Assembly: GCA_018651605.1 (NCBI GenBank)
Contig: JABIDS010000009.1
Coordinates: 19,966-83,965, forward strand
DNA from: an archaeon
GTDB lineage: Archaea > Nanobdellota > Nanobdellia > Pacearchaeales > GW2011-AR1
DNA length: 64,000 bases
Direction: 5' to 3'
Shown here piece by piece: positions 1 to 25,603 of the stretch (the first letter of the stretch is position 1; the number at the start of each line of letters is the position of its first letter). The notes below the pieces were generated by a model. It saw only the letters and a program-made list of their open reading frames with translations, was not told the DNA's origin and did no database searches. The translations under genes were made by a program, and so were the position numbers.

Positions 1-99
1 ATTTAAGAATTTATATGAAAATCCTTTGCCTGTTTGGGATAAAGGTCCTGTTTGGGCTTGATGTGAGTTATTTTTGTAGGGGTAATTTGTTTGTTATTA

Positions 100-142
100 T
101 ATACAATATGTTTTTATATGTGTTTTTTCTAATATTGTAAAG
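100..142 (+). promoter_or_regulatory. putative archaeal promoter (TATA-like tttttatat ~30 bp upstream of the giant ORF start)
   Basis: AT-rich TTTATA-like box at ~104-112, about 30 nt upstream of ATG at 143. No SD, consistent with leaderless/short-leader archaeal transcripts. Confidence 0.3.
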
Positions 143-3100
143 ATGGTGTTGGAAAAAAAAGATGTGATTGGACATATAGAATTGACTTATATTTTGTTTG
201 TTCTTTTGTTTGTTTTGGTAGGGTTTTTGTTTAGTTTTGATTATGTTGTTGAGGAGTTTGTTAAGGAAGGTGTTGAGAGTGAGGGGGTTGGGGTTTTGGA
301 GGGTGGAGTGGAGGTTGGTGTTGGTTCTGAGGGTAGTGGTTTAGGGAGAGATGGTTTTGATGGTGATGAAAAGAAGAGTGGTTTTTTTAAGAGGATTTTT
401 GAGGGGTTGTTTGGTAAGGAGGAGGTTTTGTTTAGTCCTCCATCTATTGACTCTGTTTCTCCATTGAATGGATTATCAAAAACTGGTGAGGAACAAATAT
501 TTACTATAGAATATTCTGATCCTGAGGGATGGGAAGATTTAATCTATGGTTATGTTATTTTTGGAGCAGATTCATCTGATAGTAGGATTTTTTTAGAGTA
601 TAGGCATACTACAAAATTCGGATTAGTTAATGATAAAGGGATTATGACTTATCATTGTGATCCAGAATCAGATAATTTTTTATCTAATTCTTATGTAAAA
701 TTAGATTGTTCTAAATCTTTTGTTTCTGGTTCTGGAGATACTATGACTTTAACTTTAGCTTTAACATTTAAAGAGCCTTTTATTGGAAATTGGAAAATAC
801 TTTTAAGGACAAAAGATATTTCAGATAAAGATAAGGGTAAATGGGTGCCAATGGGGGATTGGGATGTTGAGGAAGGGGAGGTAATTATTGTTCCTGTTAA
901 ACCTCTTCCTCAAATGCGGGCACTTTATGGAGGGATTAATGAATTAAGAATTGGAGAGGGTGGGATAGATGCATACACTGATATGTTTAGGAGTTATGGA
1001 ATTAATACATTTATAACTAAACATTCTGGATTAAGAAATAATTTTATTTATGCTGATAGGTATCCAAATTCTCCTGAAAATTTTTATGAATCAATTTTAG
1101 ACCAGGCTGAGTGGGCTGAACAAAAAGGATTTGTTTTCTTTCCAATTATTGATTTTGTTCATAGGGTTAATGATCCTGATGATTTGGATGGGGATGAGAT
1201 TACAGTTTCTTCCATTACAGATAACTATGTTGTTTTTAGTGATGGTAGTGCGGGTTCACAAGTAACTCCTTTTGATGAGACTTATTGGGATTATTTAACT
1301 GATATTGCAGTGAGATTAGCAAGACTTTCAGAAAATTATGGCAAATATCGGGTTGATGGTTTAATGTTTGATTTTGAATTGTATAAAAGTGTAGAATTTG
1401 GAGAACCAAGAAAATTTGATAGGACTTTTGGTTTTGAAGATTCTACTTTTAATAATTATTTGGTTGATAGAGGTTTAGTTGAGTTGAATAGTCCTCCTAA
1501 GGAGTCTAATCAGAGGGCTGAAAGATATGATTGGTTAATAGATAATGGGAGATGGACTGATTATTATTCTTATCTTGAAGATACAATAGAAAAACTTGCA
1601 GAAAATATGAAGAGTGAGGTAAGAAAGGTTAATCCTGATTTCGTGTTAGGATTTTATCCTACGCCAGAGCCGCTTTATTTAATAGATATCCTTGATGGTT
1701 TTGGAAGTGAGGATGATCCTGCGGTTTTATTGGATACTTTTACTTATGCAATATCTTATATGGGATATTCTTATGGGGGAGAAGTAGTTCCAACAGGGAT
1801 TAGTCGTAATAGATTGCCTTCTGGTTATTTTGATGTAACTAAAAGATATCATCCTGAAAGAAATAAACCTGCGTATGCTTATTATCTTGGAGGAACAATA
1901 GCTGCTGCTTATGATCCTTTGGATTATGAAAATAAATTATATAATATTGGAAATGATGGAAATGGTTATTGGATTTATCAGGCTACTTTTTTTCTAAATG
2001 GTTTTAGGCCGGATTTACCGGGATGGGGATTACCTTGTAATAATGGGATTCGTTCTTTTAATTGTCCGAATGCTGATGCACATCAAGGTGCTGTTGACCA
2101 TTATTTGAATGAGATAAAAAATGCTAATTTAAGGTTGGGATGGGAGCCGTGTGTTCTTTCAAATGGAGGTGATGAAATATGTGATAATAAAGATAATGAT
2201 TGTAATGGAAAGGTTGATGATGGTGATTTGTGTGATAATGGAAATTATTGTGATGGTGTTGAAACTTGTTCTTCAGGAAGTTGTGTTGATGGTAGTGCTG
2301 TTGTATGTAATGATGGAATTGATTGTACTGATGATTTTTGTGATGAAGTAAATGATAAATGTGATGTAGATGAGTCTTCTTCTAGTTGTGGATGCCCTAA
2401 TGGTTTGGATTCAGAGTGTAGTAATGATGATGTTTGTGATGGTATTGAGAGTTGTAATACTGAAACTTTGGTTTGTATTGATGATGTGGATTTGGATTGT
2501 GATGGGAGTGATGTTTGTATTGATTATTCTTGTGACGCTGTTTTAGGTTGTCAAGAGAGTTTTAATAGTGCTGATTGTAATGATGGGGTTGATTGTACTT
2601 TGGGAGATAAATGTAATTTGGGTGATTGTTCTGGAACTCCTTATGATAGTGAGTGTGAATTTTTTTGGCAGTCTTGTAATCCTGTTTCTGGTTGTGAGCA
2701 GGCGAGTTGTAAGGATTGTAAGGATTGTGATACCTGGCTTGGTAGTTGTAGTTATAATGAATGTCATAATGAATGTGATTGGGGAGATGGTTGTTATTTT
2801 GAGAAGGATCCTTTGGGTGATGATTGTGTTCCATTAAGTGAAGGTTGTTCTTCTGTTGGTAGTTGTGGAGATTATTCTGTTGAGGAGTGTGTTAGTGATT
2901 TATGTGATAAGGCTCCTGTTGGTGGGAATGGTTGTGAGTTAGGTGAAAATAGGTTTGTAATTATGTCTTTTAGTCAGTATTTAGATGATTTTGCTGATGA
3001 ATGGCATCAATTAGTTCAACAGACATATATTCAAAATGAAAAAGTTATTAATAAGATATATATTGACGGTGTGTTAAGAAATACTGAAAAGTTTGAGGAT

Positions 3101-6100
3101 GCAGGAGGGTTGGTTAATAATTATGCTAATCTTAAGTTAGCTGTTGATTTGAATGGAGAAGTTGATGATGTTAAAATTTGGAATAGGGCTTTGAGTTCTA
3201 GTGAAGTTTTAGATGATAATAATGGTGTTTTGGTTTCTGATTCATTGATTGCACATTATAATTTTAATGAGGGTAGTGGGGTTGGAGTTGTGGATTCTGT
3301 AGGAGATAATGATGGTGTTCTTAATGGGGATGCAGTGAGAATTGATGGAGGAATTATTGATATTGGAACTTCAGGTTATATTGAAATTAAAGAAACTTCG
3401 GTGATGGATATTTCATTAACAGATGAGTATACTATTTCTGGTAGGTTTAAGTTATCTTCAGAAGAAACTGCAGGCAGTAGATATTTTTGGTCTGATTATT
3501 CTTGGATGAACTCAGGATTTATTGCTATAATTTTTCCTCGTGATCAGAAATTTTATTATTATAATACACATAAAGATTTGAGTGTTTGTGTTGATGCTAG
3601 TTATTGTGGGGATGGTGTTTGTGGTTTTGAGTCTGGAGAGAATTGTGGTGGTTGTGAGGAGGATTGTGGTTGTTCTGGTGAGACTCCTCATTGTTCTAGT
3701 GGGAATTGTGTTGAATGTGAGAGGCCTAGTGATTGTGATGATGGATTATATTGTAATGGTGTTGAAAGTTGTGTTGATGGAAGTTGTGTTGATGGAAGTG
3801 TTATTAATTTTGATGATAGAGTTGGTTGTACTATGGATAGTTGTGATGAAGTTAATGATGTGATTGTTAATGTTGTTGATGATGGTTTATGTCAGAATGG
3901 AGATTGGTGTGATGGTGTTGAGAGTTGTGACGCTGTTTTGGATTGTCAAGATGAGGTTGATCCTGATTGTAGTGATGTTTATAGTTGTAGTGTTGATAGT
4001 TGTAGTGAGGGGTCGGTAGTTGGGGATAATTTAGGTGTTTGTGATTATGATACTTCTGGTTGTGGATGTTTAGTTGATGGTGATTGTGATGATTCAAATG
4101 ATTGTACTGATGATTTTTGTAATGCTCAACGTGAATGTGATAAGACGAATAAGATTAATGGTTTTGTCTGTGATGATGGGAATTTATGTACTGAGGATGA
4201 TAAATGTTCTGTTGGGGTTTGTAGTGGTTCTGCTAGGGATTGTTCTTCTTTAAGTGATCAGTGTAATGATGGTGTTTGTGATTTAGATGATGGTTTGTGT
4301 AAGGCAGAGGTTAAGATTAATGGTTTGAGTTGTGATGATGGTTTGTTTTGTAGTGTTAGTGATGTTTGTGGGAATGGTGTTTGTGGTGGTTCTTCTAGAG
4401 ATTGTTCATCCTTTAATGATCAGTGTAATGATGGTGTTTGTGATGATGTTTTGAATTTGTGTAAGGCTGATGCTAAGGTTAATGGTTTGGATTGTGATGA
4501 TGAGGTTGATTGTACTGTTGAAGATAAATGTAGTTTTGGGGATTGTAAGGGTCGTGTTGATGATAATGAATGTGAAGATTGGGAATCTTGTAATCCTGTT
4601 TCTGATTGTGGGCAAGTAACTTGTTCAAGTTGTAAGGAATGTGATAGTTGGCTTAGTGGTTGTGATTATAATGAATGTCATAATGAATGTGATTGGGGGG
4701 ATGGATGTTATTTTGATTCTAAGTTTGGTGAGAATTGTGTTTCATTAGTTGATGGTTGTTCTTCTGTGGATAGTTGTGAGGATTATTCTAGTGAGGAATG
4801 TGTTAGTGATTTGTGTGGTAAGGCACCTTCTTCAAATGGGTGTGAACTTGATGGAGATGATTGTGTTGCTGTTAGTTATTGTGGGGATGGTGTTTGTGAT
4901 GTTGGTTCTGAAGATTGTAGTAGTTGTGTTGAAGATTGTAGTTGTTCTGGGAATGTTGATTTGAAGCAGTGTTCTAGTGGAAGTTGTGTTGAATGTTTGG
5001 AGGTTGATGATTGTGATGATGATAAGAGTTGTACTAATGATTTGTGTACAAATAATGTTTGTGTTTTTCCTGAGATTGATTCAGATGGAGATGGTTATGG
5101 TGCTTGTTTAGGTATAGGGTTTGATTGTGATGATGGGGACCGGGATGTTAATCCTGGGGTTGAAGAGAGTTGTAATAATGTTGATGATGATTGTGATGGT
5201 TTGACTGATGAGAGTTTGAGTCAGGCTACTAGTTGTGGTGTTGGTTTGTGTTTAGGTAATGTTGGTGTTGAAACTTGTTCTTTAGGTAGTTGGATTGGTG
5301 ATACATGTGATGAAGATGATGGTGCTGTTGATGAAGTTTGTAATAATGCCGACGATGATTGTGATGGTTCTACTGATGAGGGTTGTGCTTGTTCATTAGG
5401 TGATACTCAACCTTGTGGTAGTGATGTTGGAGAATGTGTTGCTGGTTCTCAAGTTTGTGATATTAATGGTATTTGGGGGGATTGTGTTGGTGGGCAAGGA
5501 CCTGTTGTTGAAATTTGTGATAATAAGGATAATGATTGTTCTAATGGGATTGATGATGGCTTGAGTAGGGGAACAAGTTGTGGGGTTGGGGCGTGTTCTG
5601 GGAATAGTGGGGTTGAAACTTGTTCTGCGGGTGTTTGGGGAAGTGATACATGTGATGATAAAGCTGGTGCTGTGAGTGATGCGAATTGTAATGGTGTTGA
5701 TGATGATTGTGATGGTTCTAAGGATGAAGATTATGTTTCGGTTGATACAAGTTGTGGGGTTGGGGAGTGTTTGGGGAATAGTGGTAGTTGGAGTTGTGTG
5801 AGTGGGAATGAGGTTGATAGTTGTGATGAATATGCTGGGAAGGTTGAAGAGAGTTGTGATGATGAAACTGGTTTTGATGGTTTGGATAATAATTGTGACG
5901 GTAATGTTGATTTAGATTGCGAATCTATTTGTGATAAAGATGGAGATGGTTATACAAATAATTTAATTTGTTTACCTGCTTGTTTAATTTATGGTTGGAA
6001 TTGTTTGAGTTTGGATTGTGATGATTCTAATGTAAATATAAATCCTAGAGAGGATGAATTATGTAATGGTATTGATGATGATTGTGATGGTGGAACAAGT

Positions 6101-7975
6101 GATGGAGTTGATGAGGATTGGTTTGGAGATGAGACAGGGTGTGGGGTTGGGGAGTGTGCTGCGGTTGGGGAACAATTATGTATAAATTCTCAAAAAACAA
6201 ATACATGTCAAGAAGGTGTTGCAGAGTTAGATGATAAGAGTTGTGATGGGAAGGATAATGATTGTAGTGGTGATGCTGATGAAGATTATATTTCTTTAGT
6301 TACTGATTGTGGTATTAATGAATGTTTGAGAATCGGGATAACATCATGTTCTAATGGAGAGGTTTTGGATTCTTGTGTTGTTGGAACTTCTGAACTAGAG
6401 ATTTGTGATGGTAAGGATAATGATTGTGATGGGAAATTTGATGAGGGTTGTGATTGTTTATTAGGTGATAGTCAACCTTGTGGGAGTGATGTTGGTGAAT
6501 GTGTTGTAGGTTTGCAGACTTGTAATATTAATGGTAATTGGGGAGATTGTGTTGGTGGTCAGGGTCCTGTAGAGGAGATTTGTGATGGTTTGGATAATAA
6601 TTGTGTTGGAGGGGTTGATGAAGGTGGAAATAGTTTATGTGATGATTCTATTGATTGTACTGATGATGTATGTAATGGTGTGAGTGAATGTTCTTATACT
6701 GAGAATCATGGTCTTTGTGAGAATAATTTATTTTGTGATGGAGAGGAAAGATGTAGTATTGATGAAGAGAAATGTATTTCTATAAAGACTCCTAATTGTG
6801 AGGATGTTTTTTCATGTACTGATGATTCTTGTGATGAGGGTTTGGATAAGTGTGTTAGTGATGAAAATTCTGGGAATTGTTTGACTGGGCAGATTTGCGA
6901 TGTTCTTAATTTTGTTGCTCCAACTGGTTGCGGTTATGTTGAGAATTGTGTTGATAAAGATGGTGATGGGTTGTATGATTATGATGAGAATTTTTGTTCG
7001 GAGGGTGTTGATGAGTGTTCTGGAACAAATAAGGGTTATTTTGTTAGGAATCCTTTTAAGTTGAATGATTATTTGCCTAAGGTTGGAAAGTTTAATATTC
7101 CTTCGGTGAATGCAGGAAATATTTTGAATTTTGAGAATTTTAGTGTTGAGTATAATGGGACTAAAATTAATTTTGTTGATAATGTTAGTTTGGTTAAAGT
7201 GAATGCTAGCGGTTGTTTTGAGGTTATTAATTTAAGTGAGATTGTTTTGTTTGAGGATGGTAAGTTGAGTGTGAATACGAGTTTGATGGATGGATTTGAT
7301 AAGCCTGCACTGTTGAAGTTTAGTGGAATTAATTTTGAGAACCCTCAGATTTATAGGGATGATGTTAAGTGTGTTGATTGCGAGATTATTAATTATTCTA
7401 AGGGAGAATTTTTAGAGGTCATGATTACTGGTTTTGTTTCTTATGATGTTAAGGAAGGGGCTTATTGTGGGGATGGTGTTTGTAATGGTGGTGATAGTTG
7501 TTCTAATTGCGTTGTTGATTGTGGGGTTTGTTCTGCAGGTGAGGGAGGTATTCTTGGAGGAGGTTCTGGGAGTTCTGGTGGTGGTGGTGGTGGGAGTCCT
7601 AGTGGTCCTAGTGGTCCAAGTGGAGGAAATCCTAGTGGTTTAAATATAAATCAAAGTAGTGTTGTAAATGTTTCTTATCCTAGTAGTTGTGTTGAAACTT
7701 GGTCTTGTAAGGATTGGAGTGAATGTAATGAGAGTGTTCAGAGAAGGGAGTGTTCGGATGTTAATGATTGTGGGAGTGAGGAGTATAAGCCTATTTTGGA
7801 GAAGGAATGTGTTGAGAAGAATAATGTTATAAAACTTGCTGTTGCATTTTTTATATCTTTTTTTGTTTCAGGAATAGTTGCTGTTTTGATTGTTGTTTAT
7901 TTTAAGATTAGGGATAGAAGGAAGAGTGTTATTAGAGATTTGCATAAGAATGGTTATCATGGGTTTAAGTGGTGA
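143..7975 (+). CDS. giant cysteine-rich cell-surface protein (2610 aa) with MopE-like CDxxDNDCDG metal-binding-type repeats, LamG/ConA-like blocks and C-terminal TM anchor
   Basis: Uninterrupted 7.8 kb ORF. N-terminal hydrophobic segment LTYILFVLLFVLVGFLFSF. Hundreds of Cys in repeated CxxxC and CDNKDNDCDG..DE units. Two blocks with a LamG-like signature (IYIDGVL...VDDVKIWNRALSSSEV). Gly/Ser/Pro linker GGGSGSSGGGGGGSPSGPSGPSGG. C-terminal TM LAVAFFISFFVSGIVAVLIVVYF followed by basic KIRDRRK. Confidence 0.85.
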   Translation: MVLEKKDVIGHIELTYILFVLLFVLVGFLFSFDYVVEEFVKEGVESEGVGVLEGGVEVGVGSEGSGLGRDGFDGDEKKSGFFKRIFEGLFGKEEVLFSPPSIDSVSPLNGLSKTGEEQIFTIEYSDPEGWEDLIYGYVIFGADSSDSRIFLEYRHTTKFGLVNDKGIMTYHCDPESDNFLSNSYVKLDCSKSFVSGSGDTMTLTLALTFKEPFIGNWKILLRTKDISDKDKGKWVPMGDWDVEEGEVIIVPVKPLPQMRALYGGINELRIGEGGIDAYTDMFRSYGINTFITKHSGLRNNFIYADRYPNSPENFYESILDQAEWAEQKGFVFFPIIDFVHRVNDPDDLDGDEITVSSITDNYVVFSDGSAGSQVTPFDETYWDYLTDIAVRLARLSENYGKYRVDGLMFDFELYKSVEFGEPRKFDRTFGFEDSTFNNYLVDRGLVELNSPPKESNQRAERYDWLIDNGRWTDYYSYLEDTIEKLAENMKSEVRKVNPDFVLGFYPTPEPLYLIDILDGFGSEDDPAVLLDTFTYAISYMGYSYGGEVVPTGISRNRLPSGYFDVTKRYHPERNKPAYAYYLGGTIAAAYDPLDYENKLYNIGNDGNGYWIYQATFFLNGFRPDLPGWGLPCNNGIRSFNCPNADAHQGAVDHYLNEIKNANLRLGWEPCVLSNGGDEICDNKDNDCNGKVDDGDLCDNGNYCDGVETCSSGSCVDGSAVVCNDGIDCTDDFCDEVNDKCDVDESSSSCGCPNGLDSECSNDDVCDGIESCNTETLVCIDDVDLDCDGSDVCIDYSCDAVLGCQESFNSADCNDGVDCTLGDKCNLGDCSGTPYDSECEFFWQSCNPVSGCEQASCKDCKDCDTWLGSCSYNECHNECDWGDGCYFEKDPLGDDCVPLSEGCSSVGSCGDYSVEECVSDLCDKAPVGGNGCELGENRFVIMSFSQYLDDFADEWHQLVQQTYIQNEKVINKIYIDGVLRNTEKFEDAGGLVNNYANLKLAVDLNGEVDDVKIWNRALSSSEVLDDNNGVLVSDSLIAHYNFNEGSGVGVVDSVGDNDGVLNGDAVRIDGGIIDIGTSGYIEIKETSVMDISLTDEYTISGRFKLSSEETAGSRYFWSDYSWMNSGFIAIIFPRDQKFYYYNTHKDLSVCVDASYCGDGVCGFESGENCGGCEEDCGCSGETPHCSSGNCVECERPSDCDDGLYCNGVESCVDGSCVDGSVINFDDRVGCTMDSCDEVNDVIVNVVDDGLCQNGDWCDGVESCDAVLDCQDEVDPDCSDVYSCSVDSCSEGSVVGDNLGVCDYDTSGCGCLVDGDCDDSNDCTDDFCNAQRECDKTNKINGFVCDDGNLCTEDDKCSVGVCSGSARDCSSLSDQCNDGVCDLDDGLCKAEVKINGLSCDDGLFCSVSDVCGNGVCGGSSRDCSSFNDQCNDGVCDDVLNLCKADAKVNGLDCDDEVDCTVEDKCSFGDCKGRVDDNECEDWESCNPVSDCGQVTCSSCKECDSWLSGCDYNECHNECDWGDGCYFDSKFGENCVSLVDGCSSVDSCEDYSSEECVSDLCGKAPSSNGCELDGDDCVAVSYCGDGVCDVGSEDCSSCVEDCSCSGNVDLKQCSSGSCVECLEVDDCDDDKSCTNDLCTNNVCVFPEIDSDGDGYGACLGIGFDCDDGDRDVNPGVEESCNNVDDDCDGLTDESLSQATSCGVGLCLGNVGVETCSLGSWIGDTCDEDDGAVDEVCNNADDDCDGSTDEGCACSLGDTQPCGSDVGECVAGSQVCDINGIWGDCVGGQGPVVEICDNKDNDCSNGIDDGLSRGTSCGVGACSGNSGVETCSAGVWGSDTCDDKAGAVSDANCNGVDDDCDGSKDEDYVSVDTSCGVGECLGNSGSWSCVSGNEVDSCDEYAGKVEESCDDETGFDGLDNNCDGNVDLDCESICDKDGDGYTNNLICLPACLIYGWNCLSLDCDDSNVNINPREDELCNGIDDDCDGGTSDGVDEDWFGDETGCGVGECAAVGEQLCINSQKTNTCQEGVAELDDKSCDGKDNDCSGDADEDYISLVTDCGINECLRIGITSCSNGEVLDSCVVGTSELEICDGKDNDCDGKFDEGCDCLLGDSQPCGSDVGECVVGLQTCNINGNWGDCVGGQGPVEEICDGLDNNCVGGVDEGGNSLCDDSIDCTDDVCNGVSECSYTENHGLCENNLFCDGEERCSIDEEKCISIKTPNCEDVFSCTDDSCDEGLDKCVSDENSGNCLTGQICDVLNFVAPTGCGYVENCVDKDGDGLYDYDENFCSEGVDECSGTNKGYFVRNPFKLNDYLPKVGKFNIPSVNAGNILNFENFSVEYNGTKINFVDNVSLVKVNASGCFEVINLSEIVLFEDGKLSVNTSLMDGFDKPALLKFSGINFENPQIYRDDVKCVDCEIINYSKGEFLEVMITGFVSYDVKEGAYCGDGVCNGGDSCSNCVVDCGVCSAGEGGILGGGSGSSGGGGGGSPSGPSGPSGGNPSGLNINQSSVVNVSYPSSCVETWSCKDWSECNESVQRRECSDVNDCGSEEYKPILEKECVEKNNVIKLAVAFFISFFVSGIVAVLIVVYFKIRDRRKSVIRDLHKNGYHGFKW

Positions 7976-7989
7976 TTTGGTTGGGTTGG

Positions 7990-8370
7990 ATTTTCCACCA
8001 CCCACGGAAAGCCGGTTTCACCTTTCCCTTTCCGTGCCGTTGCAGTCTTAAAAAGTTGTTAGAGGGTTTATTTATTCAGAGGAGTTTTCTTTGGTTGTTG
8101 TTAAGAGATTGGTTTGGTTATAGATGGGAAAGGTGTTTTGTAGAGAGTTTAAGATTTAGGAGATTCAGAGAATTAAAAATTCTCTGACTTAGAAAAATAA
8201 GCTATAAGCCCTATTATTTTTCTAATTTCAGTATTTAGCGGAGCGCCCTGACTAAGTCGGGTGCGAGAGCGATATAAAATAAGTTATGAGCTGAAGGAGA
8301 ATGAATCATGGATGGAATAAATGAACCGAAAGAGAATGAATCTATGCGAGCGATAGTGAATGAATCTAAT
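7990..8370 (+). repeat. interspersed repeat family A, copy 1 (structured intergenic element, ~380 bp, contains 9-bp-arm palindrome and an inverted GAC-loop hairpin)
   Basis: Shares blocks (cGGAAAgccg; caCTTTCCCTTTCC; ttgttagaGGGTTTATTTATTCAGAGgag; ATAAGCCC; aaaTAAGTTATGAGC; GAATGAATCTAtGCGAGCG) with copies at 11735-11885 and 56345-56630. Palindrome cagagaatt/aattctctg at 8166-8188. Segment gcggagcgccctgactaagtcgggtgcgagagcg resembles the reverse complement of the hairpins at 45560 and 46799. Confidence 0.7.
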
Positions 8371-8377
8371 CTTTTAA

Positions 8378-10426
8378 TCACTCAATCCTACTAATCCCGT
8401 TATCTTTTTGTATTCTTATTATGTTATCTACAAAACCTTCAATTTTTTGTTCATGAGATACTAGGATGAGTTGTTCTGTGTTTAGTTGATGAAGGACATC
8501 TCGCATTTTATCTAATTGTTGGTCTGAGAATCCATCTGTTGGTTCGTCTAGGATGACTAGGTTTGATGTTTTAATGTTGCTTAATAGGGAATTGATGACT
8601 TGGTTTAAAGAGAGACGGTATGCAAGGGCTATTGCTGTTCTTTCTCCTCCGCTTAAGAATGAATAATCTAATTCGTAATCTTGTTGAGTGATTACTGGTG
8701 AAAAGTCGTCATCTAGCGAGGCTGTTAAGGAATCCGAGACAAGTGTTGAGAACCAATCTGAGAATAATGTTGAGAATTCTTGTTTTAAACTTAACATTAC
8801 TTGTTTTTCTGTGAAAAGGATGAGGTCTAGGAATTTGTTTGAAATCCAAGATTCAATGTGTTTGATTTTTTCTGCCTTGGTTTTTATTTCTTGTTTCTTT
8901 TGTATTTTTTCCTTGACTTCATTAATCTGTATTCCTAATAGTTGAATTTCTTTATTTGTTTCTGCTTTTTTTATTGCTAATTTTTCTTGATTTGTTTTTG
9001 TTTGATTTAGTTCTTCTTTTTTTGTTTTGTAAATTGTTTCATATTTGTCGTATTCTTTTATTGATTTTTCTATTGTTTCTATGTGTTTTTTTAATGTCTC
9101 TGTATCTTCATTTGTTGCTTGCATTTGTTTTTCTAAGTCTTGTATTCTTTGTTGTTTTTCTTTGATTGTTTCTAATTTTACTTTTCTAATTTCTAAGTCT
9201 GATTTTCTTTTTTTGTATTCTTCTATTGAATTTTTTATTGATTCTAATTGTTTTTCTAAATATGTTCTTTGTTTTGTTAATTGATTTATTGATTCTTGTA
9301 ATTGTTTTATTTCTTGGCTTGTTTTTTGAGATATATTTTGTTTGTAATTTTCTGAAACTTCTTGAAGGCAGGTTGGACAATTTTCTAAGTGAGATATTTT
9401 GTTTTGTAGGCTTTCTGTTTCTTGTTTTTTTGAATCTTGTGAATTTATTTTACTAACTATTTGTATGAATTCTTTTTCTAATTCTTGATGTTTGGATTCT
9501 TGGAATTTTACTCTTTGGTCTAATGCTGTGTATTCTCCTTCGTCGAATTTTAATTCTTGAGTTTCTTTTAATTGATATTGAATATTGCTAATGTTATTTT
9601 TTGTTGAAGTTATTTGTTGAGATTTTTCTCTTATTAAAAGTTCTGATTTTGATTTTTCGTTTTCTAATGTTTGTTTTTGGTTTATTTTTTCTTGAACTTC
9701 TTCAAGTGCTTTTTCTTTTTCTTTTGATTTTTCTAATGCTTGTTCGTGTTGCTGTGTTAATTGTGTTTTTAATTTTTTTAAGTCTTCTAAGTTTTGTTTT
9801 TTGTTTTCTAGGTTTTGTTTTTCTTCATCAATGTCTTGAGTAATTAATTCAAAAAGTCTTGCTTTTTCTCTTAATTTTGAAGTTAATATTGATAAATTTT
9901 CTTCTATTCTCTTATATTTGTCGATTCCAAAAACATGTCTTAATGTGTTTAGTCTTATGTCTCCTGGTTCTAGGATTATTTGTTTCATTTCTTCCTGGGG
10001 AGTGTAGACTGTGAATTTGTATAGAAGGTTTGTTTTTTTTGCGAATTCTGGAGGGTAGTTTAGTAATTTTAGAATTTTTGATTTTATTTCTGTTACAGAG
10101 CCTTCGAATTTTTCTTGGTTTATTGTTATTGATGAATAATCTTGTGTTACTGATTTTTTTGTTTTTTTAAGGGACCTTTCTATTATTATCTCTTTATTGT
10201 CTATTTCTAAATGTAGTTCTACTTTTGCTTGTTCTTGATTGGTTTTGAGAAGTGATGTTCCTTTTTGTGAGGGCTGTAGGCCGAAGAGTGCGAATTCTAT
10301 TGCAAGGAGTATTGTTGTTTTTCCTGCTCCTATGTCTCCTGATAAAAGTGTTGAACCTTGTGGGAATGTTATTGTTTGGTCTTCGTAGCTTCTTATGTTT
10401 TGGATTTGGAGGGATTTTAGTTGCAT
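8378..10426 (-). CDS. rad50: DNA double-strand break repair ATPase Rad50 (compact, 682 aa)
   Basis: Walker A GDIGAGKTTILLAIEFALFG. Long coiled coil with zinc hook CPTC. ABC signature SGGERTAIALAYRLSL. Walker B LVILDEPTDGFSD. Start overlaps the mre11 stop. Confidence 0.9.
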   Translation of the reverse strand: MQLKSLQIQNIRSYEDQTITFPQGSTLLSGDIGAGKTTILLAIEFALFGLQPSQKGTSLLKTNQEQAKVELHLEIDNKEIIIERSLKKTKKSVTQDYSSITINQEKFEGSVTEIKSKILKLLNYPPEFAKKTNLLYKFTVYTPQEEMKQIILEPGDIRLNTLRHVFGIDKYKRIEENLSILTSKLREKARLFELITQDIDEEKQNLENKKQNLEDLKKLKTQLTQQHEQALEKSKEKEKALEEVQEKINQKQTLENEKSKSELLIREKSQQITSTKNNISNIQYQLKETQELKFDEGEYTALDQRVKFQESKHQELEKEFIQIVSKINSQDSKKQETESLQNKISHLENCPTCLQEVSENYKQNISQKTSQEIKQLQESINQLTKQRTYLEKQLESIKNSIEEYKKRKSDLEIRKVKLETIKEKQQRIQDLEKQMQATNEDTETLKKHIETIEKSIKEYDKYETIYKTKKEELNQTKTNQEKLAIKKAETNKEIQLLGIQINEVKEKIQKKQEIKTKAEKIKHIESWISNKFLDLILFTEKQVMLSLKQEFSTLFSDWFSTLVSDSLTASLDDDFSPVITQQDYELDYSFLSGGERTAIALAYRLSLNQVINSLLSNIKTSNLVILDEPTDGFSDQQLDKMRDVLHQLNTEQLILVSHEQKIEGFVDNIIRIQKDNGISRIE

Positions 10427-12069: not shown

Positions 12070-12399
12070 ATGTTAATGGAAAAAGAAGTGAAACATTTCT
12101 TAATGATAATTGTGATTGTAATTTTGTTAGGAGTTTTTGTTTTTAATTATTTTAGTATTGGTTTTTTTAAAAGTGCTGAATATTTTTTGAATGAATGTGC
12201 TGTGGATTCGGATTGTGTGATTAGTGAGACTCGTTGTTGTCCTTGTAGTTCTAGTGGGAAGGATGTTTGTGTTTCTTTGGAAGAAGGTGAGATGTATGCT
12301 GAGGAATTGAAGGATTGTTCTAAGAATTTGCTTTGTGCTGAGGTTTTTTCCTGTGTTGTTGAAAGTTGCGGTTGTGTAAATGGGAGGTGTGTGGGATGA
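12070..12399 (+). CDS. small secreted/membrane-anchored cysteine-rich protein (109 aa), translationally coupled to downstream subtilase
   Basis: N-terminal hydrophobic stretch MIIVIVILLGVFVFNYF. 13 Cys in the C-terminal 70 aa. Its stop TGA overlaps an ATG of the subtilase ORF (ATGA at 12396-12399). Confidence 0.5.
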   Translation: MLMEKEVKHFLMIIVIVILLGVFVFNYFSIGFFKSAEYFLNECAVDSDCVISETRCCPCSSSGKDVCVSLEEGEMYAEELKDCSKNLLCAEVFSCVVESCGCVNGRCVG

Positions 12400-15140
12400 G
12401 ATTTGGTGAGAAATGTTTTGTTGTTGTTTTTATTTTTGTTAGTTTGATTTTTATTATACCTTTTTTGGTTTCAGAATCTGTGGATGAAAAAATAAGTATT
12501 GAGGTTTTGAAAGAATTTTCTGAGTTGGGTGAGAAGAATTATGGTAATGTGGGTGAGGATGATGAAAAGGTTAAAGTTGTTATCAAATTGAAAGATGTTT
12601 CTGAAGATGAATTGGAGGAGATTCTTGAGGAAGAGGTTTTAGAAGATGTTGAGGAAGATGAAGTGTATAAGAATTATATTTCTACTGAAGTTTCTTTTGA
12701 AGAGTTGGAGGTTTTGGAGGAGAATAAAGATGTGGAAATGGTTTCTGAGAATCATGTTCTGAGTGCTTTTTTGCAGGATGTTGGAGGTATTGTTAATTTT
12801 ACCATTGTTAATCCTTTGAAAGTTTCTGGTTTGAATCTAACAGGGGTTTCTAAAACTGTTTGTGTTATTGATAGTGGTGTTGATTTTACTCATCCTGATT
12901 TGGCTGGTAAGAATGATAGTTGTGTTATAGATTGTTTTAATAATAAGGCATGTGTTGAGAATTGTTCTGCGGGTGATGAGAATGGGCATGGGACGCATGT
13001 TGCAGGGATTGTTGGGGCTTCTGGGGGGATTTTTGGTGTTGCGAGCAATGTTAGTTTAATTGGTGTGAAAATATTGGATGAAAATGGTGATGGTAGTGGT
13101 TGGGATGTTGATTTAACTAGGGCTATTGATTATTGTGTTGCTCAAAATGTTGAGGTGATTACAATGAGTTTGGGAACTGCTACGTTGTATGATTCTGATT
13201 GTGCTGGTTCTATGGGTGGTTGGACAGATTCTGTTGATGCTGCTTTTGCAAATAATATTTCAATTATTGCTTCTAGTGGTAATGCTGGAAACTGGACACA
13301 TATTGCAAGTCCTGCTTGTATTGGGAATGTGACTCCTGTTGGAGGGACTAATAAAAATGATGCTATTTTTTATAATAGGAACAGCTTAGTGGATTTGGTT
13401 GCTCCAGGAGTAAGTATAAATTCTACTTATAATAATGGGGCTTATCTTGTTCAGGGTGGAACTTCTATGGCTACGCCTGTTGTTGCAGGAGCGTATGCAA
13501 TTATTTATCAGTTGTTGGATTTAACTGGAAGAATTATGAATAATTTTGAAATTGAAGAAGTGTTGAATAATACTGGGAAGACGATTAATGATGCTTCTTC
13601 TGGTTTGAGTTTTACTAGGATTGATATTTATGAGGCTGTTTTGTCGTTGGATAATATTTCTCCAAATGTTACATTAAATAGTCCTGTTGATGGGAATGTT
13701 AGTTTAATTGGTGATTTTAATTTTAGTTGTAATTATAGTGACTGGCAGTTATCTAATGTTAGTTTTTATTTATGGAATTCTAGTGGGTTGTTTTATAATG
13801 AGAGTAAGGATGTTTCTGGAATTAGTAATTCTTCTGTTTTTAATTATAGTTTTTCTGTTGAGGATGATTATTCTTGGAATTGTTTTGTGTATGATGATAA
13901 ATCTAATTTGGGTTTTGCTGATTCTAATTTTTCTTTTAGTATTGCTAATGTTGTGACGATTCTTGATTCTCCTGAGAATAATAGTTATGTTAATCAGGCT
14001 GTAAATTTTTCTTGTAATTTGACTTCTGCAGGAAGTTATATTTTGTCCAATGCTAGTTTTTATTTATGGAATTCTAGTGGGTTGTATTATAATGAGAGTA
14101 AGGATGTTTCTGGAATTAGTAATTCTTCTGTTTTTAATTATAGTTTTTCTGTGGAGGATGATTACTCTTGGAATTGTTTAGGTTTTAATAATAATTCTGA
14201 ATCTGATTGGGGAAATAATAATTTTAGTGTTGGTTATGATGTTAGTGATGTTAATGTTAGTTTGAATGGTCCTAGCGATGGTGTTTCTTATAGTTCAAAT
14301 AGTCAGAGTGTTGTTTTTTATTATAATGTTTCTGATAATAATGAAGTTGCTAATTGTAGTTTGGTTGTTGGAGGAGTTGTTAGTTCTAGTAATTTGACTA
14401 TTGATAAAAGTTCTAGTAATTTGACGTTTGTTCAGAGCTTTGTTCCTGGAACTTATAATTGGAATATTAATTGCTCTGATGATGCAGGGAATGTTGGGAA
14501 TTCTAGTTCTAGAAGTTTTACAGTTATTGCGGTTGCTTCTCCAAGTGTTTCTTCAAGTGGTGGTGGAGGGGGAGGAGGAGGAAGTTCTACTAAAACCTAT
14601 GTTCTTACTTCTGTTGAATCTTCTGAAGTTAATATTAAAAAATTAAATAAAAATGATAAGATAAAGTTTGCATTTTTTGATGAGGTTGCTGGAGAACATA
14701 TTTTAACTGTTACTAAAATTAATTCTGATTCTGTTGAGTTGGTAGTTCGTAGTGATGTGATAAATTTGAAATTAGGAATTGGACAGAGTATAAAATTAAA
14801 TTTAACTTCTCCTGATTATTATGATTTGTATTTGAAACTGAATTCTATTGTTGATGGAAAAGTGGAGTTAGTTATTCAGACAATTAATGAGAAGATTCTT
14901 AGTCATGATATTAGTATTGGTGGTAAAAGTGTGGATGATAGTGTATTAGAGGAGGATGTTAGTGATGGTGCTGATTCATTAGTTTATGAAATAGGTAAGT
15001 TAAGGTATGTTATTTTTATTTTGATTGTTATTATTGTTGTCTTTATTGTTTCTTTATTGTTTCCTAAAAAAGAAGTTACTAAACATAAATTTGGATCTAA
15101 TAAACGAGAAAGTTTTTTGAAACACTTATTAGAAATTTAA
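12396..15140 (+). CDS. subtilisin-like serine protease (peptidase S8) with repeated glycosylation-rich domains, poly-Gly linker and C-terminal TM anchor
   Basis: Catalytic triad contexts VIDSGVDFTHPD (Asp), GHGTHVAGIV (His), GGTSMATPVVAG (Ser). Signal peptide MRFGEKCFVVVFIFVSLIFIIPFL from the ATG at 12396 (the ORF track starts 30 nt earlier). Duplicated ~95-aa module (…FYLWNSSGL(F/Y)YNESKDVSGISNSSVFNYSFSVEDDYSWNC…) rich in N-x-S/T sequons. Poly-Gly tract SSGGGGGGGGSS. C-terminal TM YVIFILIVIIVVFIVSLLF. Confidence 0.85.
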   Translation: MRFGEKCFVVVFIFVSLIFIIPFLVSESVDEKISIEVLKEFSELGEKNYGNVGEDDEKVKVVIKLKDVSEDELEEILEEEVLEDVEEDEVYKNYISTEVSFEELEVLEENKDVEMVSENHVLSAFLQDVGGIVNFTIVNPLKVSGLNLTGVSKTVCVIDSGVDFTHPDLAGKNDSCVIDCFNNKACVENCSAGDENGHGTHVAGIVGASGGIFGVASNVSLIGVKILDENGDGSGWDVDLTRAIDYCVAQNVEVITMSLGTATLYDSDCAGSMGGWTDSVDAAFANNISIIASSGNAGNWTHIASPACIGNVTPVGGTNKNDAIFYNRNSLVDLVAPGVSINSTYNNGAYLVQGGTSMATPVVAGAYAIIYQLLDLTGRIMNNFEIEEVLNNTGKTINDASSGLSFTRIDIYEAVLSLDNISPNVTLNSPVDGNVSLIGDFNFSCNYSDWQLSNVSFYLWNSSGLFYNESKDVSGISNSSVFNYSFSVEDDYSWNCFVYDDKSNLGFADSNFSFSIANVVTILDSPENNSYVNQAVNFSCNLTSAGSYILSNASFYLWNSSGLYYNESKDVSGISNSSVFNYSFSVEDDYSWNCLGFNNNSESDWGNNNFSVGYDVSDVNVSLNGPSDGVSYSSNSQSVVFYYNVSDNNEVANCSLVVGGVVSSSNLTIDKSSSNLTFVQSFVPGTYNWNINCSDDAGNVGNSSSRSFTVIAVASPSVSSSGGGGGGGGSSTKTYVLTSVESSEVNIKKLNKNDKIKFAFFDEVAGEHILTVTKINSDSVELVVRSDVINLKLGIGQSIKLNLTSPDYYDLYLKLNSIVDGKVELVIQTINEKILSHDISIGGKSVDDSVLEEDVSDGADSLVYEIGKLRYVIFILIVIIVVFIVSLLFPKKEVTKHKFGSNKRESFLKHLLEI

Positions 15141-23773: not shown

Positions 23774-23829
23774 AGATTAATTTATTTGAAACCAAAGATT
23801 AAAAAAGGCTTTTTTTCTTATTAATTTAT

Positions 23830-23904
23830 GGCTTGTTAGCTCAGTCTGGTTAGAGCACTAGACTCTTAATCTAGGTGTCGGGAGTTCAAATCTCCCACAG
23901 GCCA
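23830..23904 (+). tRNA. tRNA-Lys (anticodon CTT), 75 nt, no encoded CCA
   Basis: Manual cloverleaf: acceptor GGCTTGT/ACAGGCC; D arm GCTC-AGTCTGGTTA-GAGC; anticodon arm CTAGA-CTCTTAA-TCTAG; T arm GGGAG-TTCAAAT-CTCCC; discriminator A. Confidence 0.85.
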
Positions 23905-23975
23905 TTTATATCTTAACACTAAATCTAAGATGTAGAAAATTATGAAGGATTAAATACATTTAGATATTTTGTAGC

Positions 23976-24719
23976 CTACTTGATCTTCTCACCTGACTCC
24001 CAAAGCATATAAAAATATTTTTTTAAACTATCAGCTAAAGAATCATTTTTAATCCATAGTGATAAATATTTATCTCCTTCAACAATCCTTATAGTAACAT
24101 CACTATCATCAATAATAGTAAATTTTGTAGTAATAAGAGGAATTTTTCTAATTTCAGCATTAATTTTCTTCCAGACTTTTAATTTATCGCTAGTTGCCTC
24201 CTCATCACTTGTTAAAATCTTAATCTTGACATTATCTTTAGCATTTTTTTCATAAGAATCGATATGAGGTTTATATGTTGAAAGTTCAGAAATTGTCAAC
24301 CATTCCCTTCTAACATTCTTATGAAGACTCACAGAAAGATTAAGATAATTCTTATAACCTTCAACAATTTTTATTTTATCAATCACTTCATCCTTGTTAA
24401 TCATAGCAAGTTCCCCTAATTCATTCATAATCCTGTCAGAATTATTAATAAAATTATCTAGTTCTTTTTCTTTTTTTTCTTTTAAGTAATTAAAGATTAT
24501 CTTAGGTGCAACTGAAACGAACTTTTTCGGACTACCGTCATACTTTTTTACAAATCCTTTGGCAGTTAAAGACTCTAATACTGAATATATCTTACTATTT
24601 GGAATTAAAGATTCCTTTGATATCTTATATGCAGTTGATATCCCATTTTTTATTAAATATATGTATGCCTTTGATTCATTAGTTGTCAAACCAAATTGCT
24701 TTAATTTCTCCATAATCAT
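23976..24719 (-). CDS. TrmB-family transcriptional regulator
   Basis: N-terminal wHTH LKQFGLTTNESKAYIYLIKNGISTAYKISKESLIPNSKIYSVLESLTAKGFV matches the TrmB signature. 247 aa. Confidence 0.7.
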   Translation of the reverse strand: MIMEKLKQFGLTTNESKAYIYLIKNGISTAYKISKESLIPNSKIYSVLESLTAKGFVKKYDGSPKKFVSVAPKIIFNYLKEKKEKELDNFINNSDRIMNELGELAMINKDEVIDKIKIVEGYKNYLNLSVSLHKNVRREWLTISELSTYKPHIDSYEKNAKDNVKIKILTSDEEATSDKLKVWKKINAEIRKIPLITTKFTIIDDSDVTIRIVEGDKYLSLWIKNDSLADSLKKYFYMLWESGEKIK

Positions 24720-24772
24720 AACTACCCAAGGGGGTTACTATTATATAAATATTTCTATTTATTATTTTTTTC

Positions 24773-25462: not shown

Positions 25463-25603
25463 GTAAAGTTAGTACTATCAACTGTTTAAGATAATTTTTT
25501 CTAAAATAGACACTGTGTCATATATAATCCAAAACTCTTAATCCAACACATATATCAATAAGAAAATTAAAAAACCATAAATACCTCATAAATTCATACT
25601 CAT

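Follow-up and report, generated by a model that had tools for sequence, protein, structure and literature searches.

Our analysis indicates that the giant protein (2610 residues) encoded on the + strand at positions 143-7975 of the window, the 64,000-nt stretch of archaeal DNA under study, combines a predicted glycosidase-like domain near its N-terminus with a long cysteine-rich stalk and a C-terminal membrane anchor. With a probability that we put at about 0.55, it is a fast-evolving, anchored surface protein that both binds and cleaves glycans. The glycosidase-like domain, designated D2, is the most informative part of the protein. It was overlooked in a preliminary description of this DNA made from the sequence alone: most elements of the anatomy given there hold, but the glycoside-hydrolase-like TIM barrel in the N-terminal region had been missed. 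With its 2610 residues, TM anchors, one LamG domain and one true ortholog, the protein belongs to a known class, the giant surface proteins of small archaea. Such proteins are the main candidates for partner recognition or exploitation by small-genome archaea, and almost none has an assigned activity. D2, unannotated and glycosidase-like by prediction, with an invariant D-x-E motif, offers a testable handle and could become a new CAZy family.

The gene, its ortholog and its neighbourhood

The open reading frame is a single uninterrupted one from ATG to stop (2610 codons plus stop, 12.2% of the window), in agreement with the single ORF of about 7.8 kb and 12% of the window reported earlier. Its product is identical to NCBI entry MBT4165679.1, 'hypothetical protein HOE04_01425 [archaeon]'. 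The archaeal nature of the DNA, also stated in the preliminary description, is borne out by aRF1, Mre11/Rad50 and RNase J in the window. A TATA-box-like element upstream (Table 1) is a possible archaeal promoter of a leaderless or short-leader mRNA; a sigma-70 scan gave no match, and Rfam yielded only a chance-level match in the intergenic region 7950-8420. Neither NCBIfam nor PHROGs matched the whole protein or its domains.

Among 5.8 billion clusters, we found only one true ortholog, P0002, which is collinear with the giant protein over aa 1364-2596. Identity to it is 37% in D2, 53% in the stalk and 69% in the membrane-proximal domain D3, whereas MetRS and RNase J of the same two genomes are 90% and 95% identical. 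The two proteins also differ by domain swaps: D1 is missing from the ortholog, and its counterpart of Cys block 1 plus LamG is a NosD beta-helix. Divergence of this speed fits a role in interaction or adhesion.

An ORF of such composition could be an artefact of the extremely G+T-rich strand, of a misassembled repeat or of pseudogene decay. The + strand is almost devoid of C at synonymous sites, GAT, GGT, GTT and TGT codons are favoured, and Asp, Gly, Val and Cys together make up 41% of the protein. However, the frame stays open for 7.8 kb although G/T/A-rich sequence holds many potential stop codons, and Cys accounts for 8.3% of residues (216) versus 1.1% in the other + strand proteins, with a spacing governed by defined motifs. 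The confidently predicted fold of D2 and the domain-wise conservation in a syntenic ortholog speak against an artefact as well. The statistics of the Cys motifs, together with the ortholog and the D2 fold, led us to reject a spurious, composition-driven ORF. Repeat collapse, raised earlier as something that might interrupt the frame, is not suggested either, since DNA repeats within the ORF are at most 84% identical and the ortholog is collinear; misassembly was rejected on the same repeat identities. Altogether, we regard an artefact as extremely improbable.

The preliminary description had also proposed a host-interaction locus comprising the giant gene and a downstream S8 subtilase. This proposal is not supported: Rad50 and Mre11 lie between the two genes on the opposite strand, so that the giant gene and the subtilase do not form one transcription unit, and a functional operon was rejected. 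Synteny of the region was seen only in the sister genome, where it carries little information because housekeeping proteins of the two genomes are 90-95% identical.

Table 1. Features of the giant gene and its product, with the nearby subtilase (positions in the window)
Feature	Nucleotides	Residues	Strand	Remarks
TATA-box-like TTTATAT	113..119		+	24-30 nt upstream of ATG, read from sequence
N-terminal hydrophobic segment TYILFVLLFVLVGFLFSF	185..238	15-32	+	Kyte-Doolittle maximum 2.67
Acidic Gly/Glu/Val-rich low-complexity linker	239..427	33-95	+	largely missing from ortholog
D1, all-beta domain	428..892	96-250	+	strands in low-confidence model
D2, glycoside-hydrolase-like (beta/alpha)8 barrel (predicted)	893..2146	251-668	+	unannotated family
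Candidate catalytic motif DGLMFDFELY	1355..1384	405-414	+	through strand beta4, just past its C-terminal end (model)
Cys block 1	2147..2947	669-935	+	41 Cys
LamG/ConA-like domain, circularly permuted (probable)	2948..3586	936-1148	+	Laminin_G_3
Cys block 2a	3587..5062	1149-1640	+	YCGDGVC modules (aa 1155, 1580), CxDGxxCNGxExC and CTxDxC units
Cys block 2b	5063..6622	1641-2160	+	nine ~57-aa units
Cys block 2c	6623..7012	2161-2290	+	CTxDxC-type units and DKDGDGLYDYDE loop
D3, membrane-proximal domain	7013..7462	2291-2440	+	69% identity to ortholog
Third YCGDGVC module and Gly/Ser/Pro linker	7463..7642	2441-2466 and 2467-2500	+	
Small 6-Cys module	7685..7810	2515-2556	+	CxxxWSCxDWSxC...QxRxC...C...C; 57% identical to ortholog
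C-terminal transmembrane helix	7829..7900	2563-2586	+	Kyte-Doolittle maximum 2.91
Basic cytoplasmic tail KIRDRRKSVIRDLHKNGYHGFKW	7901..7972	2587-2610	+	sequence
S8 subtilase	12396-15140		+	

A glycosidase-like barrel in the N-terminal head

The head consists of two domains. For D1, the beta-strands come from an AlphaFold2 (AF2) model of aa 96-700 built with a 5-sequence alignment (pLDDT 47). This domain has no Pfam match and shares the motif NSYVKLDCSKSFVSGSGDT with P0009. For D2, modelled alone with 46 sequences, AF2 predicted a (beta/alpha)8 fold with confidence, and the best structural matches of the model are all glycosidases, which places it at the level of the glycoside-hydrolase barrels (GHL10/Cwp19, GH153, GH42, GH14, GH5, GH18). 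At the sequence level, D2 matches no Pfam or NCBIfam model and no named GH or GHL family; profiles of 4 and of 46 sequences found nothing among PDB sequences, and none of the 45 family members scanned has a Pfam model over the shared D2 region. With about 600 representative sequences, the family extends over both archaea and bacteria (e.g., Anaerohalosphaeraceae, 'Ca. Zipacnadia', Diapherotrites), and a few of its members also possess CBM9, CBM_4_9 or dockerin modules, in keeping with action on glycans. A scan of GTDB genomes returned two D2 loci only, and a metagenome scan returned only distant partial relatives (L003 to L009).

Conservation across the 46 family members points to a candidate catalytic site. 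D410, E412 and Y414 are invariant, D410 and E412 being the only invariant acids, and the motif that contains them is placed on strand beta4 by the D2 model. In enzymes of the retaining clan GH-A, the nucleophile is on strand 7. The D2 family has no conserved acid on that strand, and a glycine near its end, Gly584, is 98% conserved. In Cwp19, a conserved glycine (Gly328) likewise occupies the position of the strand-7 nucleophile (PMC5765458). Both Cwp19 of Clostridioides difficile (GHL10 TIM barrel, PDB 5OQ2/5OQ3) and the C-terminal GH153 domain of PgaB/BpsB (PDB 6AU1) are surface (beta/alpha)8 glycosidases that act on envelope polymers containing N-acetyl-hexosamine and have a key acid at the end of strand 4; in the D2 model, D410/E412 lie at or just after strand 4. 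The likeness has limits. D2 is 10-14% identical to these enzymes, has no Pfam GHL10 or GH153 match and no PDB sequence match even with the 46-sequence profile, and carries D-x-E-x-Y where Cwp19 has D-D-Y. Moreover, the partner of D2 in the fusion is a giant Cys-rich stalk and not a set of cell-wall-binding repeats. If D2 is catalytic, its mechanism would probably dispense with an enzyme nucleophile; like enzymes whose substrates are polymers of N-acetyl-hexosamine, it would then work by substrate assistance or as a lytic enzyme.

A stalk of Asp/Cys-rich modules

All 216 Cys residues lie between the two hydrophobic segments of the protein, and they are concentrated in the two Cys-dense blocks recognised earlier, aa 669-935 (41 Cys) and aa 1149-2290 (155 Cys). 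Cys block 1 opens with a motif of the PF11617 type (aa 680), and the stand-alone homologs P0007 and P0008 have kept this motif behind D2 as well. The block closes with module X (aa 808-935), which shares 60-68% identity with aa 1447-1573. In addition to the units listed in Table 1, Cys block 2a contains a 54-aa tandem unit in 2.5 copies (nt 4150-4547) and module X'. In Cys block 2b, each unit joins the PF11617 Asp/Cys motif to a CG-vGeC-...-C-...-C segment; most units have six Cys, enough for three possible disulfides each, and DxDxDG loops are frequent.

The preliminary description called these repeats MopE-like and metal-binding, and the Pfam family concerned, PF11617, is indeed named Cu-binding_MopE. 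Its score exceeds the gathering cut-off of 27 bits both for the whole protein (43.6 bits) and for aa 1636-2300 (77.2 bits in 9 stretches). The motif C-x2-4-D[DN][DN]C..G..[DE] occurs 9 times against 0.03 expected, and DxDxDG loops 9 times against 0.66. Taken literally, the Pfam name would make the giant protein a copper-binding or copper-scavenging surface protein of the MopE/CorA kind, in line with 9-10 motif copies and a score above threshold. The HMM, however, covers a stretch of 30 aa and is said to lack specificity (PMC6189053). The Cu(I) ligands of MopE are His132, His203 and a kynurenine derived from Trp130, and coordination of copper by Cys is not supported there (PMC3423442); the nine motif stretches inspected contain no His, and the whole of aa 1149-2290 (1142 residues) has 3 His, 11 Trp and 1 Met. 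Furthermore, phmmer searches of all PDB chains, among which MopE* (PDB 2VOV; PMC3423442) would be expected, gave no MopE/CorA match at E <= 10 with either aa 1636-2300 or aa 1146-1640 as the query. With MopE/CorA, which are secreted proteins of methanotrophs, the giant protein has in common only the short Asp-rich motif that gave PF11617 its name: it is not homologous to them overall, lacks a His/His/kynurenine site and does not come from a context of methanotrophy or copper regulation. We therefore consider the copper reading very improbable. The motif itself stands, above its cut-off, but similarity to MopE and its ligands do not, and 'MopE-like' is a motif name only, denoting a 30-aa Asp/Cys motif without the MopE copper ligands. 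A 'Cu-binding_MopE' annotation should accordingly be treated with caution and not as evidence for copper binding.

The loops resemble Ca2+-binding sites instead. As in thrombospondin (TSP) type-3, LDL-A and teneurin C-rich modules, an acidic loop of the DxDxDG type lies between Cys residues that would form disulfides, and the pattern C-x-[DN]-x-x-D-[ND]-D-x-D-G-x-x-D between disulfides is common to all of them. The teneurin C-rich core, to which PF11617 has been aligned (PMC3278476), holds three Ca2+ ions and contains three disulfides (PMC9058538), and the Asp/Asn/Gly loops of the motif, set between disulfides, correspond in their chemistry to Ca2+ sites of teneurin C-rich, TSP3 and LDL-A modules. 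All three are extracellular structural modules of adhesion proteins. They differ from the present unit, which has ~57 aa, six Cys and the extra CG-vGeC segment, and the TSP_3, Ldl_recept_a and EGF HMMs have no match in the Cys modules, where PF11617 alone appears at E <= 10. On motif resemblance alone, the stalk modules probably bind Ca2+.

A probable LamG domain in circularly permuted order

Two LamG-like domains had been described, of which one is supported. Against the whole protein, Laminin_G_3 (PF13385) scores 24.7 bits, below its cut-off of 27.6; for the sub-sequence aa 930-1150 the score is 33.0 bits, covering profile positions 79-150 only (aa 952-1022). The missing half appears to follow the matched one, in that the C-terminal half of Laminin_G_3 occupies aa ~952-1022 and the N-terminal half aa ~1030-1145 (LIAHYNFNEGSG...). 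An artificially re-permuted sequence reaches 37.4 bits over profile positions 2-150, so the circular permutation is supported by a gain of only 4.4 bits; the re-permuted domain had no match among PDB sequences. The domain sits between modules X and Y, and the paralogous copies of X and Y are contiguous at aa 1573/1574. The second candidate (aa 2285-2445, corresponding to D3) gave no LamG/ConA signal in Pfam (E <= 10), the PDB profile search or PHROGs, and a VCBS domain, whose presence the preliminary description had suggested checking, was not matched either.

Large LamG-bearing surface proteins of nanohaloarchaea have been proposed as host-attachment systems (PMC7443923). Like the giant protein, the LamG/ConA 'lectin-like' proteins of Nanohaloarchaeota and other DPANN (PMC7443923) and the SPEARE proteins of Ca. 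Nanohaloarchaeum antarcticus are very large, organism-specific, membrane-associated and extracellular; they also evolve fast, contain modules of the LamG type and are believed to bring about contact between cells. The giant protein differs from them in its 8.3% Cys, its PF11617-type modules and its GH-like TIM-barrel head, and no SPEARE-type protease or nuclease domain was detected in it.

Membrane anchoring and N-glycosylation sequons

Kyte-Doolittle analysis gives two hydrophobic segments only, aa ~15-32 and aa 2563-2586, and both had been noticed earlier. The second is directly followed by KIRDRRK, the basic stop-transfer of the preliminary description. No NCBIfam family for PGF-CTERM or a related archaeosortase sorting signal matches the protein, and a PGF-CTERM anchor was rejected for a plain TM helix with a basic tail. 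Between the stalk and this helix lie D3, a further YCGDGVC module, the Gly/Ser/Pro linker (another element correctly recognised earlier) and a 6-Cys module whose motif presumably resembles a thrombospondin type-1 repeat. D3 is the best conserved part of the protein; it has no Pfam, PDB or PHROGs match, and a metagenome scan with an alignment from D3 to the tail found nothing. A homology search with aa 2285-2610 likewise came back empty, presumably through a word-filter miss, since P0002 is 57% identical there.

The distribution of N-x-S/T sequons is most uneven. All 10 fall within aa 2291-2562, with 7 in D3 against 1.6 expected (P = 0.0003), whereas the 2258 residues from aa 33 to aa 2290 have none, against 18.1 +/- 3.9 expected and a minimum of 7 in 2000 shuffles. 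The ortholog follows the same pattern, its non-homologous NosD insert included (0 vs 6.7 expected). In the cytoplasmic proteins of the window, sequon counts are as expected, and the secreted S8 protease nearby has 39 sequons where 14.9 would be expected. Since the sequons appear to have been purged, the region is likely to be exposed to the glycosylation machinery, i.e. extracellular, and its disulfides would form there. DPANN LamG proteins are reported to have many N-glycosylation sites (PMC7443923), whereas here they are confined to the base. The protein thus offers a clean natural case of an archaeal ectodomain with total avoidance of N-glycosylation sites in one part and enrichment in another, a pattern kept even across swapped domains.

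The N-terminal segment could be either a signal peptide, which would be cleaved, or an uncleaved signal anchor. Because the segment and its flank are conserved (54% identity by BLAST, aa 5-45 vs 2-45 of P0002) and show no evident site for cleavage, both ends of the protein may serve as anchors, and the enzyme head would in that case lie beside its own membrane. The protein would then form a giant extracellular loop and act in cis, as an envelope enzyme or scaffold: its head would trim or remodel a self-made polysaccharide or wall polymer, and the Cys-rich loop would serve as a structural coat. In the ortholog, D2 begins only about 35 residues after the N-terminal segment, and the closest structural matches of D2, Cwp19 (an autolysin) and PgaB, have envelope polymers of the producing cell itself as their substrates (PMC5765458). 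A processive GT2 is also encoded in the window; among NCBIfam models it is closest to the PNAG synthase PgaC/IcaA, though its 152.6 bits fall far short of the cut-off of 422.3. This GT2, however, is 36 kb away and unlinked, a cis-acting enzyme would need neither a LamG domain nor a 1400-residue rod, and 37% identity together with domain swaps, between genomes with 90-95% identical MetRS and RNase J, would be surprising for a housekeeping enzyme of the envelope. On balance, we find cis action rather unlikely.

Proposed function

We favour an anchored protein that binds and cleaves glycans on another surface. From the membrane outward, a C-terminal TM helix with a basic cytoplasmic tail would hold the protein; the 6-Cys module, the Gly/Ser/Pro linker and D3 would form a glycosylated base; and ~1400 residues of small Asp/Cys-rich modules would follow as a long, largely glycan-free stalk, stabilised by disulfides and probably also by Ca2+, with the permuted LamG lectin-type domain set within it. 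The distal N-terminal end would carry the beta-sandwich and the glycoside-hydrolase-like TIM barrel with its D-x-E motif. LamG and the head would bind a polysaccharide or glycoprotein, and the D2 barrel would then cleave or remodel the bound glycan. The surface contacted would most plausibly be that of a partner or host cell, and host attachment would be a plausible role.

A more specific version is speculative and, taken as a whole, unlikely. It holds that a new glycosidase family, marked by D-x-E on strand 4 and by Gly on strand 7, is projected tens of nanometres on a glycan-free rod stiffened by Ca2+ and disulfides, an 'enzyme on naked stalk'; that the permuted LamG binds while the wall or glycan coat of the host is locally opened; and that the head and mid-stalk binding modules are rapidly exchanged as host-specificity cassettes from one near-identical genome to another. 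If true, a sequon-free distal ectodomain beside a hyper-sequoned base would reveal a novel design principle for interaction proteins of archaea.

The target need not be a cell, however. A free-living or particle-attached archaeon might display the glycosidase and lectin to environmental polysaccharide for nutrient acquisition, much as a cellulosome does. The D2 family occurs in both bacteria and archaea, the CBM9, CBM_4_9 or dockerin modules mentioned above were seen in single members of the 45 scanned, and the nearby S8 protease is likewise surface-anchored. Against this reading, the very long and costly stalk bears a single catalytic domain, and the extreme divergence between near-identical genomes suggests an arms race or a partner-specific target rather than a generic polymer. 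We therefore judge nutrient display to be quite unlikely and retain contact with a partner or host cell as the preferred reading.

Arrays of the Asp/Cys unit also occur in other large proteins. The homology search returned four further surface proteins with PF11617 repeats (P0003 to P0006), all of which lack the D2 head as well as the permuted LamG and D3. They are 35-38% identical to the giant protein over aa ~1650-2200, their partner domains are RCC1 and Ig instead, and P0003 has as many as 31 motif stretches.

Architecture and proposed function of the giant protein

The giant protein, the 2610-aa product of a single gene, is almost certainly a surface protein. We propose, with a probability of roughly 0.55, that it is anchored by its C-terminus and offers another surface a lectin cassette together with a glycosidase-type head. 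The C-terminal anchor would sit in the membrane, the membrane-proximal domain D3 would form a glycosylated base, and a long stalk, free of glycans and made stiff by disulfides and Ca2+, would hold the cassette and the head out to that surface. The odds that the protein acts in host contact are about even. A role in displaying a nutrient-acquisition apparatus seems quite unlikely.

The gene is a single + strand ORF of 2610 codons from ATG to stop, as the preliminary description had it, with a TATA-like TTTATAT located 24-30 nt 5' of the ATG. NCBI lists an identical protein, MBT4165679.1 ('hypothetical protein HOE04_01425 [archaeon]'), encoded on a 187-kb contig. DNA repeats inside the gene are at most 84% identical, and the protein is collinear across 1250 residues with P0002, its ortholog from a sister genome; neither comparison gave any sign of repeat collapse. 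We give almost no credence to an artefactual ORF. The replicon is archaeal, since the window encodes, among others, a three-domain aRF1, Mre11/Rad50, RNase J and class I/II aminoacyl-tRNA synthetases. The tentative label 'DPANN / reduced symbiont' would agree with the 493-kb contig of the sister genome and with a homolog of one domain from Diapherotrites.

Hydropathy revealed exactly two hydrophobic segments, the second followed directly by KIRDRRK. Together with composition, this agrees with the hydrophobic N-terminal segment, two Cys-dense blocks, G/S/P linker and basic stretch after the C-terminal TM noted before. Cys makes up 8.3% of the giant protein vs 1.1% of the window's remaining + strand proteins, so that Cys richness is no by-product of the odd base composition.

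Features of the giant protein, its gene and other loci
Feature	Position	Remarks
Giant gene	143-7975 (+)	
Hydrophobic segments	aa 15-32; aa 2563-2586	
Acidic G/E/V linker	aa 33-95	
D1	aa 96-250	all-beta domain
D2	aa 251-668	GH-like (beta/alpha)8 barrel
Cys block 1	aa 669-935	41 Cys
LamG-type region	aa 936-1148	no Cys
Cys block 2	aa 1149-2290	155 Cys
D3	aa 2291-2440	
YCGDGVC module	aa 2441-2466	
G/S/P linker	aa 2467-2500	
6-Cys module	aa 2515-2556	
Cys-rich membrane protein gene	12070-12399 (+)	109 aa, 12 Cys
S8 subtilase gene	12396-15140 (+)	914 aa from ATG at 12396
tRNA-Lys(CTT) genes	23829-23905; 25603-25679	
GT2 gene	44242-45501 (-)	
P0008 locus	L001 10001-11200	'uncultured archaeon'

A proposed glycan-free distal part on a glycosylated base

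Evidence for this arrangement comes from N-glycosylation sequons. A neutral region that never meets glycosylation would keep its sequons at expectation, as the cytoplasmic Rad50, TopA and ValRS do. In the distal part of the giant protein sequons are completely purged (region-wise expectations add up to 17.9), which argues that this part is exposed to oligosaccharyltransferase and that glycans would be harmful there. The enrichment in D3 argues that the base is meant for glycosylation.

Observed and expected sequons
Region	Sequons	Expected
Giant protein, aa 33-2290	0	18.1 +/- 3.9 (2000 shuffles, minimum 7)
Giant protein, D3	7	1.6 (P = 0.0003)
P0002, distal 1845 residues	0	19.9
P0002, non-homologous NosD insert	0	6.7
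P0002, D3	10	2.5
P0007, stand-alone D2 homolog	0	4.7
Neighbouring S8 protease	39	14.9

Divergence was also compared between the genomes of the giant protein and P0002. Their MetRS and RNase J are 90% and 95% identical, and the local order (giant gene, Rad50, Mre11, small ORF, S8) is kept. Yet the giant protein and P0002 share only 37% identity over D2, about 53% over the stalk and 69% over D3; D1 is missing from P0002, where a NosD beta-helix takes the place of Cys block 1 and LamG. A fast-changing distal part on a conserved base is a hallmark of interaction proteins.

Stalk and lectin cassette

The stalk was previously described as MopE-like metal-binding repeats, and PF11617 is clearly present: aa 1641-2160 consist of nine units of about 57 aa, the majority with six Cys. 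They carry the motif C-x-[DN]-x-x-D-[ND]-D-C-D-G-x-x-D-E, and DxDxDG occurs 9 times vs 0.66 expected. Kinship with MopE and a copper site were not supported. Of MopE, the PF11617 HMM represents no more than a short piece, and it 'lacks specificity' (PMC6189053); the repeat region had no PDB sequence match at E <= 10. In MopE, Cu(I) is bound by His132, His203 and kynurenine-130, Cys coordination being unsupported (PMC3423442), whereas the nine motif stretches listed contain no His and the whole of Cys block 2 only 3. Literal copper binding as the role of the protein is thus highly improbable. A closer likeness is offered by the teneurin Cys-rich core, which shares the Asp/Cys motif and has been aligned to PF11617 (PMC3278476); it holds three Ca2+ in TSP3- and LDL-A-like cages together with three disulfides (PMC9058538). 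By this analogy, we favour the view that the units are structural modules stabilised by Ca2+ and disulfides. Since the TSP_3 and Ldl_recept_a HMMs did not match the giant protein, the stalk would work like TSP3/LDL-A modules rather than be a member of them.

Two LamG modules had also been proposed. One is probable, in permuted order. In the native sequence Laminin_G_3 matched only with its C-terminal half (profile 79-150, aa 952-1022), scoring 24.7 bits in the full-length protein and 33.0 bits in a sub-sequence, and directly after this match comes LIAHYNFNEGSGVGVVDSVGDNDGVLNG, which we take to be a typical start of LamG-type domains. When aa 1025-1148 were placed ahead of aa 936-1024 and rescanned, the match covered profile 2-150 and scored 37.4 bits. 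A single LamG domain in circularly permuted order is thus the best reading of this region, which lies exactly between module X (aa 808-935) and module Y (aa 1149-1200). Because the paralogs of these modules, X' and Y', directly adjoin each other (aa 1573/1574), LamG represents a cassette inserted in the stalk. The second proposed module, D3, matched nothing in Pfam, PDB profile or PHROGs searches.

The glycosidase-like head

Pfam, NCBIfam and PDB sequence searches found no match for aa 96-668. An exhaustive profile search among 1.84 billion representatives returned 591 relatives of D2, archaeal and bacterial, and all those looked up are 'hypothetical'. None of the 45 scanned had a Pfam domain over the D2 region; CBM9, CBM_4_9 or dockerin modules occur in single members. 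Structural matches of the D2 model are of glycosidase type, in agreement with Foldseek, with beta-amylase, GH5 and GH18 enzymes further down the ranking. As identities are 7-14% and TM is about 0.5, D2 is related to glycosidases at the fold level, not as a family member.

D410 and E412, in the strand 4 motif DGLMFDFELY, are the only invariant acids across the D2 family; Y414 and, on strand 8, G608, Y609 and W610 are likewise invariant or almost so. Near the end of strand 7, Gly584 (98% conserved) stands in place of an acid, much as Cwp19 has a conserved Gly at the position of the nucleophile of clan GH-A enzymes (PMC5765458). We infer that D2 is a catalytically competent glycosidase or transglycosylase without an enzyme nucleophile. 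Polymers with 2-acetamido sugars, usual for nucleophile-free enzymes, would be the candidate substrate class.

P0007 (593 aa, ENA) and P0008 (502 aa) are stand-alone secreted D2 barrels with one PF11617-type motif right after the barrel. The giant protein has its own such motif behind D2, at aa 680. Because the motif is kept there in all three, barrel and motif seem to form one evolutionary unit.

Among the surface proteins of small archaea, giant lineage-specific ones that bear LamG are a known kind (PMC7443923), of which the giant protein is a variant. It is nothing categorically new, and its function is assigned by prediction. What is new is the unannotated GH-like head family, the permuted LamG cassette, the PF11617-type stalk and the striking contrast of a distal part devoid of sequons with a base rich in them.

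Neighbouring genes

The S8 subtilase combines an N-terminal signal with repeated beta domains dense in sequons, a poly-Gly linker and, at the C-terminus, a TM with a basic tail. It is a predicted surface protease, rich in sequons and anchored at its C-terminus. By an ATGA overlap of its start with the stop codon of the gene for the Cys-rich membrane protein, it is translationally coupled to that gene; the membrane protein had no family match, and the pair also occurs in the sister genome. The host-interaction locus suggested for giant gene and subtilase is not demonstrated, because Rad50 and Mre11 stand between them on the opposite strand.

The GT2 is of processive type, with PNAG synthase PgaC/IcaA as its best NCBIfam match (152.6 bits, cut-off 422.3). 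A further match is to Pfam Chitin_synth_2. The enzyme may make a beta-linked surface polysaccharide, and its relevance to the giant protein lies in the structural resemblance of D2 to the PNAG hydrolase domain of PgaB. Were the N-terminal segment a second anchor, the head might work in cis on the envelope polymer of its own cell. Such an arrangement would fit both the conservation of this segment, which lacks a clear cleavage site, and the presence of a PgaC/IcaA-like enzyme in the window; however, the GT2 gene lies 36 kb from the giant gene and its score is far under the family cut-off. We consider cis action, the main alternative to our reading, unlikely.

Strand asymmetry

The window (1-64000) has an extreme strand asymmetry: T 39.7, A 27.7, G 21.9 and C 10.7%, with a GC skew of +0.34. 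At third codon positions, C makes up 0-4% and T 40-65% in + strand genes, whereas G makes up 3-6% and A 51-67% in - strand genes; C is thus nearly absent from synonymous sites of the + strand in either gene orientation. Amino-acid use differs between the strands (Gly 7.3 vs 4.4%, Val 8.1 vs 3.6%, Gln 1.8 vs 4.8%), and the cumulative skew has no turning point in 64 kb. A Microgenomates bacterium is reported to have a comparable G/C disparity, but no A/T disparity (PMC7143001); a limited literature search found no archaeal precedent. The intergenic region 3' of the giant gene (7976-8377) contains local C-rich stretches (e.g. 7996-8050 and 8235-8270), odd on this C-poor strand; Rfam gave nothing above chance there.

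Two identical tRNA-Lys(CTT) genes lie 1.8 kb apart in direct orientation, separated by a TrmB-family regulator and an ORF without known function; the sequence beyond the tRNA bodies differs. The only part of the window in which the skew is lost or reversed (GC skew -0.32 to +0.18) is at about 24-27 kb (24000-27000); this stretch may have been integrated or rearranged recently.
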